64,000 nt of DNA, from NCBI GenBank assembly GCA_965216715.1, contig OZ244193.1, positions 1,119,977 through 1,183,976 on the forward strand, written 5' to 3'. A program made the position numbers and the translations under genes. This DNA comes from an uncultured Pseudohongiella sp. (GTDB lineage Bacteria > Pseudomonadota > Gammaproteobacteria > Pseudomonadales > Pseudohongiellaceae). Below are positions 2,297 to 45,422 of this stretch, in pieces. Position 1 is the first letter of the stretch. The number at the start of each line of letters is the position of its first letter. The notes beneath the pieces were generated by a model. It did not search any database and was not told the origin of the DNA. It saw only the letters and a list, made by a program, of their open reading frames with translations.

Positions 2297-3781
2297 ATGA
2301 GCCAGATTCGAACCCGAGTAGCACCTTCTCCCACCGGCGACCCCCATGTGGGCACCGCCTATATCGCCCTGTTCAATCGCTGTTTTGCCCATCAGCAGGA
2401 CGGCAGTTTCATACTCCGAATTGAGGATACCGATCAGGCACGCAGTTCCAAAAAATCAGAGGATTTTATTCTGCAGTCCCTGCGCTGGCTGGGGCTGGAC
2501 TGGGATGAAGGCCCGGACAAAGGCGGAGACTTCGGTCCCTACCGCCAGAGTGAGCGCAGTGAAATCTACACTCGCCATATCAATGAACTGCTGGATGCCG
2601 GCCATGCCTTTCACTGTTTCTGCTCTGCCGAGCGACTCGATGAAGTGCGCAAGACACAGATGCAGAACAAGCAGCAGCTGGGCTATGACGGTCATTGCCT
2701 GTCCCTGAGCAAGGAAGAGGTGCAGCAGCGGCTGGCGGCCGGTGAAGAACATGTCATCCGCATGAAGATTCCCGAGCAGGGGGAATGCGAATTTCATGAT
2801 CTGCTGCGGGGCAATGTCAGCATCGCCTGGTCACAGATTGATATGCAGGTGCTGATGAAATCCGATGGCCTGCCCACCTACCATTTCGCCAATGTGGTGG
2901 ACGATCACCTGATGCAGATCAGTCATGTGATTCGCGGCGAAGAGTGGATCAACTCGGTGCCCAAGCATGTGCTGCTCTATCAGTATTTTGGCTGGCAGCC
3001 TCCTGTGTTCTGTCATATGCCCTTGCTGCGTAATCCCGACAAAAGCAAACTCAGCAAGCGCAAGAATCCAACCAGCATCAATTATTACCGGGACATGGGC
3101 TATCTGCCCGAGGCGCTGCTCAATTATCTCGGCATGATGGGCTGGACCATGCCGGGCGGTGAGGAAAAATTCAGCCTGAGCGAGATGACTGCACAATTCG
3201 ATATCGAGCGGGTGTCCCTGGGCGGCCCCATTTTTGATATCGAAAAACTGGATTGGCTGAATGGCAAATACATCCGTGAGGACCTGGATGACAATGCTTT
3301 CATCAAGGCCTATGCCGACTGGGCCTTTGCGCCGGAGCGAGTGGCACGCATCGTTCCCCTGATCAAACAGCGGGTAGAACGCTTCAGCGATGTGGCCGAC
3401 CTGGCCCATCTGTTCGTCGCCGGTGTGATCCCCCTGACGGCCGACAGTTTTCAGCACAAGAAACTGGACCAGGCCAGCTGTCTGCAAATTCTGCAATTCA
3501 GCCTCTGGCGACTGGAAGCGCTGGAAAACTTTGACCGGGACAGCGTGGAAGCCTGCCTGCAGCAACTGGCTCAATCTCTGGAGCTGAAGATCCGCGACTT
3601 TCTGTTTCCGCTGTTCGTGGCCATCTCCGGCAAAGCGGTTTCCACGTCAGTGATCGAATCCATCAGTATTATTGGCCTGGATATCGCCAGGGCGCGGATT
3701 CGTCATGCCATCGACAGTCTCGGTGGAATTTCCAAGAAACAGGCCAAGCGACTGGAAAAAGAGTTTCAGGCGCTGGCCTGA
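2297..3781 (+). CDS. gltX: Glutamate--tRNA ligase
   Basis: ORF 2093..3781, trimmed to the ATG at 2297 (MSQIRTRVAPSPTGDPHVGTAY). Has the HIGH-type motif HVGT and the KMSKS-type motif KLSKR. Confidence 0.95.
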   Translation: MSQIRTRVAPSPTGDPHVGTAYIALFNRCFAHQQDGSFILRIEDTDQARSSKKSEDFILQSLRWLGLDWDEGPDKGGDFGPYRQSERSEIYTRHINELLDAGHAFHCFCSAERLDEVRKTQMQNKQQLGYDGHCLSLSKEEVQQRLAAGEEHVIRMKIPEQGECEFHDLLRGNVSIAWSQIDMQVLMKSDGLPTYHFANVVDDHLMQISHVIRGEEWINSVPKHVLLYQYFGWQPPVFCHMPLLRNPDKSKLSKRKNPTSINYYRDMGYLPEALLNYLGMMGWTMPGGEEKFSLSEMTAQFDIERVSLGGPIFDIEKLDWLNGKYIREDLDDNAFIKAYADWAFAPERVARIVPLIKQRVERFSDVADLAHLFVAGVIPLTADSFQHKKLDQASCLQILQFSLWRLEALENFDRDSVEACLQQLAQSLELKIRDFLFPLFVAISGKAVSTSVIESISIIGLDIARARIRHAIDSLGGISKKQAKRLEKEFQALA

Positions 3782-3811
3782 TTGGCGCTGACAATTAGCC
3801 TTGCAGCAAGA

Positions 3812-3891: not shown

Positions 3892-3967
3892 GGGGCCTTA
3901 GCTCAGCTGGGAGAGCGCAACGCTGGCAGCGTTGAGGTCACCGGTTCGATCCCGGTAGGCTCCACCA
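3892..3967 (+). tRNA. tRNA-Ala (anticodon GGC)
   Basis: 76 nt with encoded CCA. The acceptor GGGGCCT/AGGCTCC contains the G3:U70 alanine identity pair. Anticodon loop is CUGGCAG and the T-loop is GGTTCGATCC. Confidence 0.95.
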
Positions 3968-4019
3968 AATTCCTGCCCCGGGCAGTCAGCCCGAAATAAT
4001 GGCAGACCCAAAACAAAAC

Positions 4020-4047
4020 GACCCGCTCTGAGCGGGTCGTTTTTTTT
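4020..4047. terminator. Bidirectional intrinsic terminator shared by tRNA-Ala (+) and gltA (-)
   Basis: Hairpin CGACCCGCTCTGAGCGGGTCG is flanked by AAAACAAAA upstream and an 8-T run downstream. Confidence 0.7.
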
Positions 4048-4104
4048 GTGCCTGGTTTTTCTGCCTTCGGAAAATATAAAACTTCCTGTGGCCGGGACTT
4101 GTGC

Positions 4105-5382
4105 CTATTTCTTGTAGTCCCGGCTGGTGGCGCCTTTGTACAACTGGCGAGGACGGCCGATGCGGTAGGGATTGCTCAGCATTTCGTGCCAGTGAGCGAT
4201 CCAGCCCGGGGTGCGGCCGGTGGCAAAAATCACTGTGAACAGGCTGGTGGGAATACCCATGGCCTTGAGGATAATGCCGGAGTAGAAGTCTACATTGGGG
4301 AACAGTTTGCGCTCATTGAAGTATTCATCTTCCAGGGCAATCTTTTCCAGTTTCTTGGCAATGCGGAACAGCGGATCATTCAGGCTGCCCAGCTCTTCCA
4401 GCACCTCATCACAGATGCCGCGGATCACTGTGGCGCGCGGATCGTAGTTCTTGTAGACGCGGTGGCCGAAGCCCATCAGACGGAAGGGGTCGTCCTTGTC
4501 CTTGGCGCGGGCGATAAACTCCTCGATGCGGGACTCATCGCCGATTTCATTCAGCATTTGCAGCACGGCCTCATTGGCGCCGCCGTGAGCGGGGCCCCAG
4601 AGCGCAGCAATACCCGAGGAGATACAGGCATAGGGGTTGGCTCCGGTGGAACCAGCCAGGCGTACGGTGGAGGTGGAGGCATTCTGCTCATGGTCGGCAT
4701 GGAGCAGGAACAGGGTGTCCATGGCCTTGGCCAGGGTCGGGCTTACCTTGGGTGGCTCACAGGGCGTGCCAAACACCATGTGCAGGAAGTTCTCAGCCAG
4801 GCTCATGTCGTTCTGTGGGTACATGAAGGGCTGGCCGATGCCGTGCTTGTAGCACATGGCAGCCAGTGTAGGCATTTTCGCAATGACACGGTGGGCCGCC
4901 AGCATGCGGTGTTCGGGGTTATCGATGTCAGTGGAGTCGTGATAGAAGGCGGAGAGGGCGGCTACGGCGCTGCAGAGCATGGCCATGGGGTGGGCATCGC
5001 GGGGAAAGCCGCGGAAAAACTGGTGAATGCCCTCATCGACCATGGTGTGGTAGCGAATGGAGTTTTCAAACTCCTGGTATTCCTGGTCTCCGGGAAGCTC
5101 GCCATTGAGCAGCAGATAACAGGTTTCCAGAAAATTGGAGTGCTCGGCCAACTGTTCGATGGGATAGCCACGGTGTAACAGCACGCCCTTGGCGCCATCA
5201 ATAAAGGTGATATTGGAATCACAGGCGGCGGTGGATACAAATCCCGGGTCGTAGGTGAAAATTCCCTTGCCTACCAGGCTGCGTACATCCACCACATCCG
5301 GTCCAGTACTGCCTTCATAGACGGGTAACTCAATGGTCTCATCTATCCCGTCAATGCTTAACTGGGCCTTTTTCTCGCTCAT
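4105..5382 (-). CDS. gltA: Citrate synthase (type II)
   Basis: ORF 4105..5397, trimmed to the ATG at 5382 ([12 protein letters not shown]), which has an AGGAG 6 nt upstream. [14 protein letters not shown] is the citrate synthase signature. Confidence 0.95.
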
Positions 5383-40714: not shown

Positions 40715-41929
40715 ATGTCCTCTCCCAAGAACGCAGCAAGCTCGCCCCTGGCCTTCTTCGACACCCTCGAAGCCATGCCCAATCCTTTCAAGCAGCCGGT
40801 GACCTCACTGGAGCATCTGGTCAGTGACGCCCCGGCCGATGCCATCAAGGACTACCAGTTTGCCAGCGAGTTTATCTACAGCTACCGCGGCAGCCCTGAC
40901 ACCTTCAGTACCTACCGCCGGGAAATCGAGCATTTCCTGCACTGGTGCTGGCTGATTGCCGACAAGTCCCTGGCAGCGGTGGAACGGGAGGATATTGAAA
41001 CCTATGTGGAATTCTCCCGTCAGCCTCCCCAGAGCTGGATTGGCGAACACAATGTGCCCCGCTTTATCGAGCGCGGCGGCAAGCGTCTGCCCAATAGCGA
41101 CTGGCGCCCCTATGTCAGCAAACGCGGTGAGTATGTGCTGTCCCAGTCCGCCATCCAATCCTTATTCAGCGTATTAAGTAGTTTCTTTAACTTTCTGATT
41201 CAGGAGAACTATTTATCCGCCAATCCGGTCTCGCAGATGCGTCAGAAAAGCAAATTTCTGCGCAAGCACCAGTCCCAGGGCAAGATTCGCCGGCTCTCAC
41301 CTTTGCAATGGGATACCGTAATCGAGACCGCCGAGGACATGGCCCGACAGGACCCGGCCAGGCATGAGCGCACCCTGTTTGTGATGAACGCCCTGTTCGC
41401 CATGTATCTGCGTATCTCGGAACTGGTGGAAACACCCCGCTGGCAACCGCAAATGGGTCATTTTCAGGTGGATCAGGAAGGCAACTGGTGGTTCGTCACC
41501 GTCGGCAAGGGCAACAAGGAACGGGAAATCTCGGTCAGCGACGCCATGCTGGAAGCCCTCAAGCGCTACCGGCGCTCCCGGGGCCTGCCATCCCTGCCCA
41601 GCCCCGGCGAGCCCAGCCCCCTGATTCACAAGACCCGCGGCAAAGGCGGCATCACCAGTACCCGCCAGATTCGCGGCATCGTGCAGAAATGCTTCGATCT
41701 GGCGGCGGAAAAAATGCGTAAGGAAGGCTTTGAAGAGGAAGCGCAGCGCCTGGGTGACGCCACGGTACATTGGCTCCGTCACACCGGCATCTCGGAAGAT
41801 GTTAAGCATCGGCCTCGGGAACACGTAAGAGATGATGCCGGTCATGGTTCCAGCGCCATTACCGATCGCTACATCGACGTCGAACGCGCCGAGCGTCATG
41901 CTTCCGCGCGCAACAAACTGATACGCTGA
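40715..41929 (+). CDS. Tyrosine-type site-specific recombinase/integrase (catalytic residues intact)
   Basis: 404 aa. It has an N-terminal SAM-like core-binding region (YRREIEHFLHWCW). The catalytic set is Arg in MYLRISE, the beta-hairpin Lys in GKGNKER, HWLRHT, and GHGSSAITDRY (His plus the Tyr nucleophile). No obvious Shine-Dalgarno sequence. Confidence 0.85.
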   Translation: MSSPKNAASSPLAFFDTLEAMPNPFKQPVTSLEHLVSDAPADAIKDYQFASEFIYSYRGSPDTFSTYRREIEHFLHWCWLIADKSLAAVEREDIETYVEFSRQPPQSWIGEHNVPRFIERGGKRLPNSDWRPYVSKRGEYVLSQSAIQSLFSVLSSFFNFLIQENYLSANPVSQMRQKSKFLRKHQSQGKIRRLSPLQWDTVIETAEDMARQDPARHERTLFVMNALFAMYLRISELVETPRWQPQMGHFQVDQEGNWWFVTVGKGNKEREISVSDAMLEALKRYRRSRGLPSLPSPGEPSPLIHKTRGKGGITSTRQIRGIVQKCFDLAAEKMRKEGFEEEAQRLGDATVHWLRHTGISEDVKHRPREHVRDDAGHGSSAITDRYIDVERAERHASARNKLIR

Positions 41930-42121: not shown

Positions 42122-44356
42122 ATGCGAATCTGGAACAAGACGCCTGCATTGACTAAAGGCTTTCAAGCCATCGCCCTGCTCGGCTTCAGCGGCCTGGCCA
42201 ACCCCCTCCTTGCCCAGGACGACCCCACTCAGCTCAACACCGTCCTCAATATCGACAGCCTTTACACCCCGGTAGTCAGTGAGGAGATCCACGGCATTAC
42301 CGCCGCCGAGCTGATTGAGGAATTGCAGAACAAACACTACGCAGCAGTTGAGGTAAATGATAACTTTTCCTCGCAACTGTTTGACGCCTATATGGATTTG
42401 CTTGATGGACAGCATCTGTATTTTCTGCAGTCTGACATCGAACAACTGAGCCATCTGCGCTACACCCTCGATGACAGCCTCAAGGCTGGCGATGTTGAGC
42501 CAGGCTTTGAAATCTACAATCTCTACTACAAGCGCATCCTCGAGCGGCTTATCTATGCCATTAACCGGGTTGAGAACGATATCCCCAATATGGATTTCAG
42601 TGTCGATGAAACCATCGATATCGACCGGGAAGACGCCCCCTATGCCAGCAACCAGGAAGAACTGGATGAGATCTGGCGCAAGCGCATCAAGAACAGCGTA
42701 CTGAGCCTGCGTCTGGCCGGTGATGACAATGAAGAGATCAAGGAAAAACTCAGCAAGCGTTACCGCAACCAGCTGAGCCAGGTGCTCAAGACCAACAGCA
42801 AGGATATTTTCCAGTCCTATCTGTCCTCGGTCGCCAAGGCAGTGGATCCCCACACGGATTACTACTCGCCCCGGGATTCCGAAAATTTCAACATGCAGCT
42901 GTCCCTGTCACTCCAGGGTATCGGTGCCCAGCTTACTACCGAAGACGAATACACCAAGGTAGTTGAGCTCATCAAGGGCGGCCCGGCCGAGCGCGGCAGC
43001 GAGCTGCGTGCCGGTGACCGCATTATTGGCATCGGCCAGGGTGTGGATGGCGAGATTCAGGATGTGGTCGGCATGCGCCTGGATGACGTGGTGGACCAGA
43101 TCCGCGGTGAGAAAGGCACTGTGGTGCGTCTCAATGTCATTCCTGCTGACGCCGTCAGCGAGTCGGCAGCCACGGTAGTGTCCATTACCCGCGATACCGT
43201 CAAGCTGGAAGACCAGTCTGCCAAGAGCGAAGTACTGGAGCTCAGCTACAATGGCCAGGACTACAAGATCGGCGTCATCAATCTGCCCACTTTCTATTTT
43301 GATTTCGAAGCGGCTTCCCGCGGCGACGAAGACTACAAGAGCTCCACCCGAGACGTTCGTGCCCTGCTGGAAGAACTGAAGGCTGAACAGGTGGATGCGG
43401 TGGTCATGGACCTGAGAAACAACGGCGGTGGCAGCCTCTCGGAAGCCAATCAGCTGGTGGGCCTGTTTATTGAAACCGGCGCCACAGTGCAGATTCGTTA
43501 TTCCGGCATTCGCAACGGCTTCACCCGTTCCTTCGGCGACAATGACCCGGAGGTGGCCTACTCCGGCCCCCTGGCGGTGCTGGTTAATCGTACCAGTGCC
43601 TCGGCCTCGGAGATTTTCGCCGGCGCCATTCAGGACTATCAGCGCGGCATCGTGCTGGGCGGTCAGACCTTTGGCAAGGGCACGGTGCAGGAAATCATTC
43701 CCATGGACTATGGCCAGGTGAAAGTAACCCGCTCCAAGTTCTATCGTATTTCCGGCGCCAGTACCCAGCACCGTGGCGTGATTCCGGATATCACTTTCCC
43801 GGATATCTATGACGCCTACGAAGACATCGGCGAAAGCAGCCTGGATGGTGCCTTGCCCTGGGATACCGTGCGCCCGGTTGAATACCGCCCCTATCACTCC
43901 ATTCAGGCTCTGCTGCCTGAGCTGCGGGAGCGATTCGAGGCCCGCGCCGCGCACTCGCCGGACTTCATCTATATGGAAGACCAGATCGAGCGCACCCGAC
44001 GTGGCCTGGAACGGGAGCGCATTTCCCTCAATGAAGAACAGGTGAAAGCCCGCCGTGAACGTGAACGCCGGGAAGAATTCGACGCTGAAAACATGCGTCG
44101 CTTCCTCAAGGGTCTGCCACTGCGCGAATGGATCGCCGCAGACGACCTGGACAATGAGGATGAAGAAGCCCCTGTAACCCCTGCCAATGACGACAGCTCC
44201 CTGGCAGCGGACGACAGCACAGCGGACAACAGCGAAGAGGAAGAAGAAGCTGATCCCATGCTGCTGGAAAGCGGTCGCATTTTGGCCGACTTCATGAGCC
44301 TGAACGAGCCCCGCCTGTCACGCCTGGACAACCTGCCTGAACAGCGACGTCAGTAG
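42122..44356 (+). CDS. prc: Tail-specific (C-terminal processing) protease, S41 family
   Basis: 744 aa. It has a signal peptide, a PDZ domain (GDRIIGIGQG), an S41 core (NNGGGSL, SASASEIFAGA, GKGTVQ), and a long acidic C-terminal extension. Confidence 0.9.
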   Translation: MRIWNKTPALTKGFQAIALLGFSGLANPLLAQDDPTQLNTVLNIDSLYTPVVSEEIHGITAAELIEELQNKHYAAVEVNDNFSSQLFDAYMDLLDGQHLYFLQSDIEQLSHLRYTLDDSLKAGDVEPGFEIYNLYYKRILERLIYAINRVENDIPNMDFSVDETIDIDREDAPYASNQEELDEIWRKRIKNSVLSLRLAGDDNEEIKEKLSKRYRNQLSQVLKTNSKDIFQSYLSSVAKAVDPHTDYYSPRDSENFNMQLSLSLQGIGAQLTTEDEYTKVVELIKGGPAERGSELRAGDRIIGIGQGVDGEIQDVVGMRLDDVVDQIRGEKGTVVRLNVIPADAVSESAATVVSITRDTVKLEDQSAKSEVLELSYNGQDYKIGVINLPTFYFDFEAASRGDEDYKSSTRDVRALLEELKAEQVDAVVMDLRNNGGGSLSEANQLVGLFIETGATVQIRYSGIRNGFTRSFGDNDPEVAYSGPLAVLVNRTSASASEIFAGAIQDYQRGIVLGGQTFGKGTVQEIIPMDYGQVKVTRSKFYRISGASTQHRGVIPDITFPDIYDAYEDIGESSLDGALPWDTVRPVEYRPYHSIQALLPELRERFEARAAHSPDFIYMEDQIERTRRGLERERISLNEEQVKARRERERREEFDAENMRRFLKGLPLREWIAADDLDNEDEEAPVTPANDDSSLAADDSTADNSEEEEEADPMLLESGRILADFMSLNEPRLSRLDNLPEQRRQ

Positions 44357-44378: not shown

Positions 44379-44410
44379 AAAAAAAATGGCCCTCGGGGGA
44401 TGAGGGCCAT
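44379..44410 (-). terminator. Intrinsic terminator oriented for minus-strand transcripts coming from serT
   Basis: On the minus strand, ATGGCCCT-CATCCCCCG-AGGGCCAT is followed by an 8-U run (plus-strand A-run 44379-44386). On the plus strand the same hairpin follows prc but has no U-run. Confidence 0.65.
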
Positions 44411-44574
44411 CAAGCGGGGTCAAGCTCTAGGAGGGTCAATCAATTTGAAGTTGATTGAAACTCCATTTCATTACAGCAAAAGAATCTGACAAGCCTAGTG
44501 GGGAATTGGGGCTATGTGGGGGTTAATTGTGGCTGGATTGTGGCTTGGGGTGTGCTGGGGTTTGCATACTCAGC

Positions 44575-45110
44575 ATTTTTCTTTGGGATTGAGTCGTAGC
44601 CTCGGTAGTGCTCGGGGTTAGCAGCCTGCGGCTGCCGGGGGAGAGATTGATTCGCTATTTGGCTGAGCCAAATAGCTCACCCTTTCAGGGCGGCGCTATG
44701 CGCCGTCTGCGCCGCTTCGCGGCTTTGATTCGAAATTTGGCTGAGCCAAATTTCTCACTCCTTTGGGGCAGCCTTCGGCTGTCTGCGCTGCTGACGCAGC
44801 TTTCGAACTGGAGAGTTCTCACTACTCCCCCTCCGCCTTTTGGGCGTGCGGGGTGTTACTTACGGAGTACTTTTCTTTGGGCTTGAGTCGTAGCTTGGGT
44901 GGTGCTCGGGGTTAGCAGCCTTCGGCTGCTGGGGGAGAGATTGATTCGCTATTTGGCTGAGCCAAATAGCTCACCCCTTCGGGGCGGCGCTTTGCGCCGT
45001 CTGCGCCGCTGGCGCGGCTTTCGAACTGCGAGAGTTCTCTTACTCTCCCCCTCCGCCTTATGGGCGTGCAGGGTGTTGCTTACGGAGTACTTTTCTTGTT
45101 GTGTGGCAGG
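44575..45110. repeat. Tandem hairpin-rich repeat units carrying degenerate tRNA-Ser 3'-end fragments
   Basis: Units start at about 44575 and about 44868, with a truncated third at about 45088. Unit 1 carries an extra roughly 85-bp internal module. Details are in the findings. Confidence 0.75.
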
Positions 45111-45125
45111 GTATAGACAGGAGAA

Positions 45126-45215
45126 TGGCGGAGGGGGAGAGATTCGAACTCTCGGAAGACTTTCGCCTTCGCTGGTTTTCAAGACCAGTGCATTCAACCG
45201 CTCTGCCACCCCTCC
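45126..45215 (-). tRNA. serT: tRNA-Ser (anticodon UGA)
   Basis: 90 nt with encoded CCA. The acceptor is GGAGGGG/CCCCTCC, the anticodon loop CUUGAAA, there is a long variable arm, and the T-arm is GAGAGTTCGAATCTCTC. Confidence 0.93.
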
Positions 45216-45422
45216 GCGACAGGGGCAGAATCTTACACTAATCGGGGCCTTAGTCCAATGCGTCAAAGCGACAAATGATGGCTATTGGTTCGGCCGAAAT
45301 TGATTGATTTTGTGGGGCGCCCCGGTATCATAATTGCTTGATATTTGAAGTTTTGTTGGGTTTTTTGTGAGATTAGGAACATTGAAATTCCGGTCATTTG
45401 CCCCCAAATCTTTAAATGTGAG

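Follow-up and report, generated by a model that had tools for sequence, protein, structure and literature searches.

The tRNA-linked repeats (TLRs) of Escherichia coli, known since 1978 (Egan & Landy 1978, Bosl & Kersten 1991 and Rudd 1999, as cited in PMC8144298), number 22 at ten loci, each ending in 18 to 19 bp of the upstream tRNA or rRNA gene, and have been described in Enterobacterales only (PMC8144298). No function of TLRs is known besides that of RrA, RrB and RrF, three rRNA-linked copies with a modest CsrA/Hfq link (PMC8144298). For RrB, read-through transcription, processing, and binding of Hfq and CsrA were shown experimentally; it contains five GGA motifs, two of them in hairpin loops, and mutating three lowers CsrA binding, while tRNA-linked TLRs were scored as non-CsrA binders (PMC8144298). 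Here, we report the analysis of a hairpin-rich repeat array behind the tRNA-Ser(UGA) gene of an uncultured Pseudohongiella sp. (GenBank assembly GCA_965216715.1, contig OZ244193.1, positions 1,119,977 to 1,183,976; this whole stretch of 64,000 nucleotides is called the window, and positions are counted from its first letter). With moderate confidence, we read the region as a two-unit TLR array of the RtT/RrB kind on tRNA-Ser(UGA), cotranscribed with its host gene, whose hairpins are under selection as a folded strand, probably of RNA. The reading draws on the anatomy of the array, its constant place and orientation behind tRNA genes, its similarity to E. coli TLRs, and four stems that have been kept through double changes.

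The array contains three modules of ∼78 to 80 nt, each with four hairpins, with the sequence and at the coordinates (44654 to 45016) given in the original prediction, a note made from the letters of this DNA. Blocks are read on the minus strand of the window, which is the tRNA-sense strand and carries all three modules. Matches were scored with covariance models (CMs) R1 and R2, the latter trimmed; R1 missed module 2, since cmsearch drops overlapping hits. Module 3 (44941 to 45020; R1, 103.5 bits; R2, 96.2 bits; also delimited by folding and segmentation) is a four-hairpin core plus GAAUCAA, with the stems GCCGC/GCGGC (hairpin 4), CGGCGC/GCGCCG (hairpin 3), CCCC/GGGG (hairpin 2), and GCUAUUUGGC/GCCAAAUAGC (hairpin 1). 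Module 1 (44647 to 44724; R1, 98 bits; R2, 93 bits) is a second such core, and module 2 (44725 to 44802; R2, 72.6 bits; segmentation) is a divergent one that lies head-to-tail with module 1. No further module was found in the window besides this locus (R1 and R2 scans). Letter by letter, the block order of each module is AAA, hairpin 4, GCAGA, hairpin 3, hairpin 2, UGA, hairpin 1, and GAAUCAA, with all four linkers identical across modules 1, 2, and 3. The hairpin 1 motif occurs 6 times (0.4 expected), single modules have folding z-scores of −2.9 to −4.3, and the predicted minimum free energy (MFE) structure of modules 1 and 3 is exactly the four hairpins.

Modules 1 and 3 show only three differences: the loops of hairpin 4 (GAA versus GCCA) and hairpin 3 (AUA versus AAA), and a paired double change in hairpin 2 (U:A to C:G). 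Relative to module 3, module 2 has both sides of hairpin 1 altered at two adjacent pairs and one in-register double change in hairpin 4 (C:G to U:A; GCCGC/GCGGC to GCUGC/GCAGC) with a change of loop; its hairpin 3 is rebuilt and shorter by one pair (CAGCC-GAA-GGCUG), and a single position of its hairpin 2 reads as G:U on the plus strand and C.A on the minus strand. The earlier description thus holds for the two swapped pairs of hairpin 1 and for the T:A to C:G swap of hairpin 2, and the G:U wobble that it gave for module 2 applies to the plus strand. For hairpin 3, it had correctly noted a loop-only change between modules 1 and 3 and a different sequence in module 2, where its 6-bp stem takes one G of hairpin 2. 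For hairpin 4, its module 1 stem stands, while CTGCG-CTGCTGA-CGCAG (module 2) and GCGCC-GCT-GGCGC (module 3) are alternatives that lie out of register; with the register corrected, GC(C/T)GC-loop-GC(G/A)GC occupies the same position in every module. These register errors leave the argument unaffected.

Covariation was assessed in module alignments derived from CMs and fitted to structure; MAFFT misaligned the short hairpins. In 34 distinct Pseudohongiellaceae modules, 95.9% of 700 cells pair, against 69.0 ± 1.1% in shuffles (reached by 0 of 500), a control that ignores relatedness and treats paralogous modules, which are not independent, like any others. Double changes occur in 19 of 24 pairs, and the covariation score is 0.50 (0.11 shuffled), so that the homologues keep the stems, the free breaking of which would have told against the original prediction, and covariation lies above the level of the shuffles. 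With 15 modules from four other tRNA species added (49 modules), 96.6% of 1046 cells pair (shuffles, 70%), double changes occur in 20 of 24 pairs, and 254 cells are double changed (61 expected). When partners are slid by 1 to 3 columns in the 49 modules, pairing is 32 to 37% and covariation 0.05 to 0.09. Selection on secondary structure, as opposed to decaying duplicates, had been proposed from the three modules and is supported by pairing above both the shuffled and the slid controls.

Variation is spread over every pair of hairpins 1 and 4 and five of the six pairs of hairpin 3. Hairpin 2 (CCC/GGG) is invariant in the alignments and, with its loop, gives the near-invariant GCCCGNAGGG; it is conserved sequence, not covariation. 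Because almost all changes are complete Watson-Crick swaps (11 G:U versus 15 A.C in 1046 cells), the wobble-poor stems are uninformative on which strand folds and on RNA versus DNA. Whole-hairpin swapping between copies or palindrome-correcting mutation could contribute to the covariation pattern. On the tRNA strand, the loop of hairpin 2 is GNA in 42 of 49 modules, that of hairpin 4 mostly runs from G to A (GNA or GNNA), and that of hairpin 3 is mostly AAA or GNA. The loop argument is not one-sided, because hairpin 2 on the opposite strand would be a C(UNCG)G tetraloop. Taken together, co-orientation with six host genes, the position of the terminator, the loops, the E. coli rttR RNA, and the detection of RrB favor the tRNA strand.

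The adjoining downstream position and shared orientation that characterize TLRs are found in the window, at about 30 related loci, and behind four other tRNA species. Modules occur at ∼30 of 77 orthologous tRNA-bearing loci (R1 and R2), always on the strand of the tRNA and, except at locus L055, downstream of it. The tRNA-Ser gene is inverted relative to yccA in nine genomes (L016, L030, L034, L039, L042, L051, L073, L076, and L078; region 3400 to 3800), and the module is inverted along with it in all six inverted loci that have one (L016, L030, L034, L039, L051, and L073). The E. coli serT gene is likewise directed towards yccA. A core-pattern scan of metagenomes gave ten loci, and there the core also lies behind tRNA-Arg(ACG), tRNA-Arg(UCG), tRNA-Lys(UUU), and tRNA-Ser(GGA), with flanks that fit the local tRNA; one genome has arrays at two tRNA loci (L082 and L087) on a single 714-kb contig. 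No match to the modules was obtained in a plasmid collection (blastn, distant mode) or in viral contigs.

Core sequence and structure also agree with those of TLRs, as judged by R1, the broader model R3, and a block alignment with the RtT RNA. Models R1 and R3 were built without any E. coli sequence. At E. coli tyrT-tyrV-rttR, the four TLR cores are the four best matches of both models, full length and on the tRNA strand, with modest scores (R1, 10.7 to 13.1 bits; R3, 15.6 to 18.3 bits, E values of 2e-4 to 1e-3; best decoy in 15 kb, 7.4 bits). The syntenic counterpart of the window locus, E. coli serT-yccA, has no TLR; its best match is the tRNA itself at 7 to 10 bits, and therefore a 10-bit match counts as weak. 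The TLR between rrnB T1 and T2 (E. coli K-12, L093, 434 to 528) is matched by R3 at 23.4 bits (E value, 6e-7). On either side of its core stand GAGTAGGA and AACTGCCAGGCAT, which are pieces of the 3′ region of 5S rRNA, the core lying within a shortened copy of the 5S ends; the repeated piece corresponds to the 3′ strand of the host's terminal helix (5S helix I) plus trailer. Many cloning vectors contain the T1-T2 terminator fragment of rrnB. The blocks of the Rfam RtT consensus correspond one by one to those of the Pseudohongiella units (GGGGAAGG-AUGAGAAC...GGUUCGA, hairpin, AGA, hairpin, CCCGAAGGG, CGA, hairpin, and GAGUAAUCC plus the tRNA end), with tRNA-Ser letters in place of tRNA-Tyr letters. 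The annotated E. coli rttR RNA is on the tRNA strand and terminates at the repeated CCA. A coding sequence for a “protamine-like protein” (tpr) is annotated within rttR in E. coli.

Across these loci, the canonical unit, read 5′ to 3′ on the tRNA strand, starts with the complement of the acceptor 3′ and T-stem 3′ strands, continues with a small hairpin whose last letters, GUUCGA, are the 5′ half of a T loop, and with one or two cores of ∼78 nt (hairpin 4, AGAC, hairpin 3, hairpin 2 with GCCCGNAGGG, UGA, hairpin 1, and GAAUCA), and ends in the last nucleotides of the tRNA itself from the T loop on (AAUC, T-stem 3′ strand, and acceptor 3′ strand, with GCCA in intact relatives). The resulting closing helix is 8 to 13 bp in most units. 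Both flanks track variant tRNAs (GGGCAGGGA...TCCCTGCCCC at L068, L070, and L075; GGAGGAGG...CCTCCTCC at L039). Matched flanks gave −18.0 kcal/mol and mismatched flanks −14.2 kcal/mol, a weak test, as most loci share one tRNA-Ser sequence. Locus L001 has three units with a 195-nt period, two of which end in the exact final 19 nt of tRNA-Ser(UGA), AATCTCTCCCCCTCCGCCA, CCA included. Copies of this 19-mer (0 to 3 mismatches) were found in seven loci, 172 to 176 nt past the tRNA end and again ∼191 to 195 nt onward, and at the orthologous locus of four (L001, L012, L069, and L075) the match is 19 of 19, with CCA.

In the window, two larger units of about 220 and 294 nt, 88% alike, enclose the modules (folding z-scores, −6.6 and −6.8). 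Both open with GGCGGAGGGGGAG(AG), which is complementary to the tRNA 3′ end, and both close with AATCTCTCCCCC, nucleotides 1 to 12 of the final 19 nt of the tRNA, the acceptor end and CCA being gone. All parts lie on the minus strand. The tRNA-proximal unit B begins with the 5′ strand of its closing helix, GGCGGAGGGGGAGAG (45043 to 45057; inverted repeat I5 and fold), which is 100% complementary over 15 nt to the tRNA 3′ end (45127 to 45141), 69 nt away; in the predicted MFE fold of the primary transcript, this 15-bp pairing displaces the acceptor and T arms of tRNA-Ser. Next come UAAGAGAACUCUCGCA plus GUUCGA (45021 to 45042), that is, hairpin 5 (GAACU-CUCGC-AGUUC), which is also in the predicted MFE fold of L001, and the T-loop-like GUUCGA; the UGAGAAC...GUUCGA block is common to the Rfam RtT consensus. 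After module 3, the unit has the 3′ strand of its closing helix, AATCTCTCCCCC (44931 to 44942; repeat family D7, duplex), and, in place of the lost tRNA end, an extra hairpin, AGCAGCC-GAAG-GCUGCU (44913 to 44930; repeat family D4, fold), followed by a spacer to 44838. Unit A consists of the 5′ strand of its closing helix, GGCGGAGGGGGAG (44825 to 44837; repeat families D3 and I1), UAGUGAGAACUCUCCA plus GUUCGA (44803 to 44824), modules 2 and 1, and the 3′ strand, AATCTCTCCCCC (44637 to 44648; D7), and is followed by an extra hairpin, GGCAGCC-GCAG-GCUGCU (44619 to 44636; D4). The array is thus a somewhat decayed TLR derivative, with a closing helix reduced to 9 bp and a CCA end swapped for another hairpin; we call it decayed because 12 of 19 nt remain, short of the strict 18 to 19 nt.

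The host tRNA-Ser(UGA) gene (45126 to 45215, minus strand) was called by ARAGORN and by the Rfam tRNA model (59.5 bits). It is followed by a trailer/spacer (45058 to 45125, minus strand), the distal 40 nt of which are repeated ahead of unit A (44838 to 44877; repeat family D3 and sequence). The array begins 68 nt past the tRNA on the same strand with no intervening terminator; the sole T-run intrinsic terminator downstream of the tRNA on its strand (terminator scan) is at 44385 to 44411 (minus strand, 10-bp stem plus T8) and is conserved at 11 loci. The array lies between two convergent genes, prc (tail-specific protease; 42122 to 44356, plus strand) and tRNA-Ser(UGA), and beyond the tRNA are yccA (Bax inhibitor-1 family) and then the tusDCB-tusE genes. 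The yccA product is 100% identical to that of the metagenome-assembled genome (MAG) HH_bin3 (L003) and 83% identical to that of a Pseudohongiella MAG; the source organism is a member of the Pseudohongiellaceae. Despite the identical yccA products, the array differs between the window and L003.

Between array and terminator, an element of ∼170 nt (44412 to 44550, minus strand, with the terminator at 44385 to 44411) is conserved in at least 11 Pseudohongiellaceae loci. It contains an invariant palindrome, TCAATCAA-N7-TTGATTGA (about 44432 to 44462), a GCCACAATTAACC block, and CCTCCT. The element holds its place and orientation when the tRNA and TLR are inverted and for that reason does not depend on the tRNA transcript; possible identities are an operator or a small RNA gene in its own right. 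Its sole Rfam match is subthreshold (suhB/mmgR, 23.2 bits; threshold, 41).

On the TLR reading, we infer transcription of the array, its processing, and any binding partner. The array would be transcribed together with the tRNA, as the stretch from the tRNA to 44411 contains no terminator. Each unit would then fold into a closed multihairpin domain, the closing helix of which may mimic the host RNA's terminal helix (acceptor plus T). Host end-maturation enzymes may act on the unit, with an RNase E cut in the repeated trailer and exonuclease trimming halted by the helix, and this processing would free and stabilize an RNA of ∼130 to 170 nt. The conserved hairpins and invariant linkers would form its working surface, probably a protein-binding platform. 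The tRNA-linked strand spans the T loop to the 3′ end, and the 5S-linked one is the 3′ strand of helix I plus trailer; because the two contexts share structural position and not sequence, an RNA-level logic is indicated, which points to a unit that borrows the end structure and trailer of its host and hence its end maturation and protection.

Several observations weigh against this proposal. A promoter scan found no consensus promoter for tRNA-Ser(UGA), and several metagenomic loci have a terminator between tRNA and TLR. Structured RNA should show wobble intermediates on one strand, and here G:U is nearly absent and no commoner than A.C; both strands also fold equally well by energy. The units in the window contain no copy of the tRNA 19-mer with up to 3 mismatches (12 of 19 nt are kept, twice), and tRNA-like end processing may no longer apply to such CCA-less units. 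The Rfam RtT model (RF00391) scores 17.9 bits in the window and 19.0 to 20.1 bits in L001, below its gathering threshold of 45, the alignments suggesting that its tRNA-Tyr-specific flanks are the part that fails to match, and AaHKsRNA22 (RF02902) likewise stays below its threshold of 39.8 (25.3 and 23.6 bits). Finally, because only ∼30 of the 77 orthologous tRNA-bearing loci hold modules, TLRs are dispensable.

Some relatives have the core outside the usual arrangement. Three tRNA pseudogenes carry it exactly in the T loop, all on the minus strand (Ser-GGA at L085, 7130 to 7310, and L083, 4220 to 4400; L090, 1930 to 2066, Arg-UCG; L055, 2310 to 2450, Ser-UGA). The tRNA body 5′ of the T loop is kept; that of L085 has 71 nt identical to the intact gene, and the pseudogene of L055 has a decayed 5′ end. 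Each lies upstream of an intact tRNA gene that has its own promoter-like site, and L044 has the same pseudogene with the core mostly deleted. Locus L088 (2620 to 3160, minus strand; 3900 to 4230) has an intact thiC 3′ end and a nucleotidyltransferase-like gene, and after these another, diverged fragment of the thiC 3′ region, which starts where the intact copy has GGTTCGA|ATTC. This displaced fragment has module-like in-frame inserts at TTCGA^ATTC and GACGA^AACC, with no tRNA nearby, and a further 30-nt insert at GCGA^ATAC; its open reading frame (ORF) is open throughout. In the conspecific L003, one module of 77 nt in the tRNA-proximal unit is extra relative to the window, the joint being GTTCGA^AAGCC with microhomology of at most 1 nt, and hairpin 4 of module 2 differs between the two by a block of paired changes within near-identical flanks. 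Compared with the window at 44757, L003 also has a 61-nt insertion between hairpins 2 and 1 of one module (3121 to 3209).

These loci bear on an account that we regard as unlikely, though it has the most behind it of the other readings, in which the ∼78-nt core is a small nonautonomous mobile DNA cassette that enters T-loop-like TTCGA^AT sites without target duplication, its hairpins working in single-stranded DNA in an IS200/IS605- or REP-type manner. In that case, a TLR unit would be a dispensable copy of a stable-RNA gene end in which the insertion is tolerated, with survival also in tRNA pseudogenes and dead gene fragments; if so, insertions persist only in such places because real tRNA genes cannot tolerate them, and every TLR ending like its preceding gene would be accounted for. 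The single-module difference between the window and L003, the three pseudogenes, and the L088 inserts all fit, as do the plain head-to-tail joins of tandem modules, the two array-bearing tRNA loci in one genome, the patchy distribution with variable copy number, and stems with almost exclusively Watson-Crick pairs that fold equally well on either strand. The pseudogene chimeras, however, are also obtainable by deletion between the GGTTCGAA repeats that a tRNA shares with its TLR, the divergent L088 modules come from a single contig, and the rrnB core sits at GTAGGA^...^AACTGCC of the 5S copy, sharing the T-loop site in structural position and not in sequence. Insertion also leaves the 5′ complement copy of each unit unexplained, no other module is in the 64-kb window and none was found in plasmids or viral contigs, and no transposase was identified, no search aimed at transposases having been made. 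Still less probable is that local duplication and gene conversion of tRNA and trailer made the array as a neutral by-product, with hairpins kept by DNA-level processes (template-switch quasipalindrome correction or whole-hairpin swapping between copies) and not by function. Stem changes that are nearly all complete swaps with very few single-sided intermediates, the paired-change block in hairpin 4 of module 2 between conspecific strains, which suggests segment exchange, and the variable copy number with many relatives lacking the element would follow naturally; yet hairpin order, spacing, length classes, GCCCGNAGGG, and the linkers (AGAC, UGA, and GAAUCA) are retained across six hosts, from the Pseudohongiellaceae as far as tyrT and rrnB of E. 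coli, which is difficult to account for in the absence of constraint, and unpaired linkers are not maintainable by palindrome correction.

We give very little credence to scars of site-specific integration, in which a tyrosine integrase would have piled up attL/attR remnants or miniature integrative elements at the T loop. One class of tRNA-targeting integrases crosses over in the T loop, and direct copies of the tRNA end, beginning there, delimit each unit; an integrase-like ORF is in the window, and the L088 module abuts a displaced gene fragment near island-like genes. The units are just ∼195 to 290 nt and gene-free, though, the same core stands behind 5S rRNA genes, the core breaks the T-arm-like site that an integrase needs, and the ORF is 3 kb distant and past prc, with no matches in viral contigs. 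This 404-amino acid (aa) ORF (40715 to 41929, plus strand) weakly matches the Pfam phage integrase family (5.5e-8) and, under the curated cutoff, an N-terminal SAM-like domain; prc lies between it and the tRNA, 3 kb off. Equally hard to credit is a purely cis-acting role, either as a roadblock or insulator where the prc and tRNA transcripts converge or as a 3′ protective structure, with no separate RNA. The place of the array between the prc end (44356) and the tRNA gene, its GC-rich, stable folds on both strands, and the result of the terminator scan, which found no T-tailed plus-strand terminator belonging to prc, speak for it; against it, the module follows the tRNA and not prc upon inversion, the same core is found behind tRNAs in unrelated contexts, and a closing helix that copies the tRNA end is superfluous for a roadblock.

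Other candidates were set aside. For a tRNA or tmRNA gene or pseudogene in the window array, ARAGORN and the Rfam tRNA model called only the real tRNA; the units hold strands of the terminal helix and T-loop halves. A CRISPR-like array was rejected on the irregular spacing (78, 216, and 294 nt), the hairpin-cluster repeats, and the tie to a tRNA. The analogy to a retroviral primer (18 nt of the tRNA 3′ end) was rejected, as the complement falls short of the terminal CA and the 5S-linked TLR copies only 13 nt of the mature end. Rfam at gathering thresholds returned two tRNAs only, and subthreshold matches to YrlA, sX4, C4, suhB, and microRNA models were put down to chance or to echoes of the tRNA. 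The listed ORFs that run through the repeats and the tRNA (44608 to 44886, plus strand, 92 aa; 44899 to 45303, plus strand, 134 aa; 44949 to 45266, minus strand, 105 aa) are almost certainly spurious.

Read as TLRs, the array and its relatives extend the range of these repeats to a marine Pseudomonadales lineage, beyond the Enterobacterales described in PMC8144298, and their hosts to at least six genes, namely, tRNA-Ser (two isoacceptors), tRNA-Arg (two), tRNA-Lys, and tRNA-Tyr, plus 5S rRNA. The TLR body becomes a four-hairpin domain with abundant double changes, which differs from the structure drawn in the Rfam RtT model, and its flanks invariably reproduce the terminal helix of whichever RNA is the local host. 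For annotation, this accounts for an “intergenic” stretch, rich in repeats, where gene callers place spurious ORFs. The locus and its relatives make a broad comparative data set for two contrasting mechanisms, a processed RNA that borrows the end of its host and a DNA cassette that seeks T loops.

Among known systems, REP/REPIN elements, the IS200/IS605-derived PATEs, and Rickettsia palindromic elements are, like the modules, short, noncoding, hairpin rich, and variable in copy number, with insertions that look clean and lack target duplication, and the in-frame inserts in the coding fragment of L088 resemble Rickettsia palindromic elements. The modules differ in being tied to stable-RNA ends, not seen dispersed, and without a GTAG-type REP head. 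The 3′ETS-leuZ RNA is a functional analogy, an RNA freed from a tRNA primary transcript by tRNA-processing enzymes (PMC8144298); unlike the units here, it is a short, unstructured sponge, not a repeated multihairpin RNA, has no tRNA-end copy, and bears no sequence relation. AaHKsRNA22 of Aggregatibacter (RF02902), defined by transcriptome sequencing, shares a consensus run of hairpin, hairpin, CCCC-aaA-GGGG, GA, 9-bp hairpin, and GA, and matches modules 3 and 1 at full length on the tRNA strand, subthreshold, so that it is a lead and not a test. RrA, RrB, and RrF (rrnA, rrnB, and rrnD, T1-T2) share the order of the four-hairpin core and flanks taken from the terminal helix of the upstream gene, and some metagenomic relatives also have a terminator between host gene and TLR; their host, in contrast, is 5S rRNA, and the modules here have GNA loops, with GGA in just 1 of 49 hairpin 2 loops. 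RtT/rttR (tyrT/tyrV, RF00391) likewise consists of tandem units directly behind a tRNA and on its strand, the canonical unit ending in the last 19 nt of the tRNA, and has the same block order (tRNA-end complement, UGAGAAC, GUUCGA, hairpin, AGA, hairpin, CCCGAAGGG, YGA, hairpin, and GA.UAAUC plus the tRNA end). The host is tRNA-Tyr in Enterobacterales there and tRNA-Ser(UGA) in a Pseudomonadales family here, where hairpin 1 in the window is twice as long, the CCA end is lost, and each unit has one or two cores.

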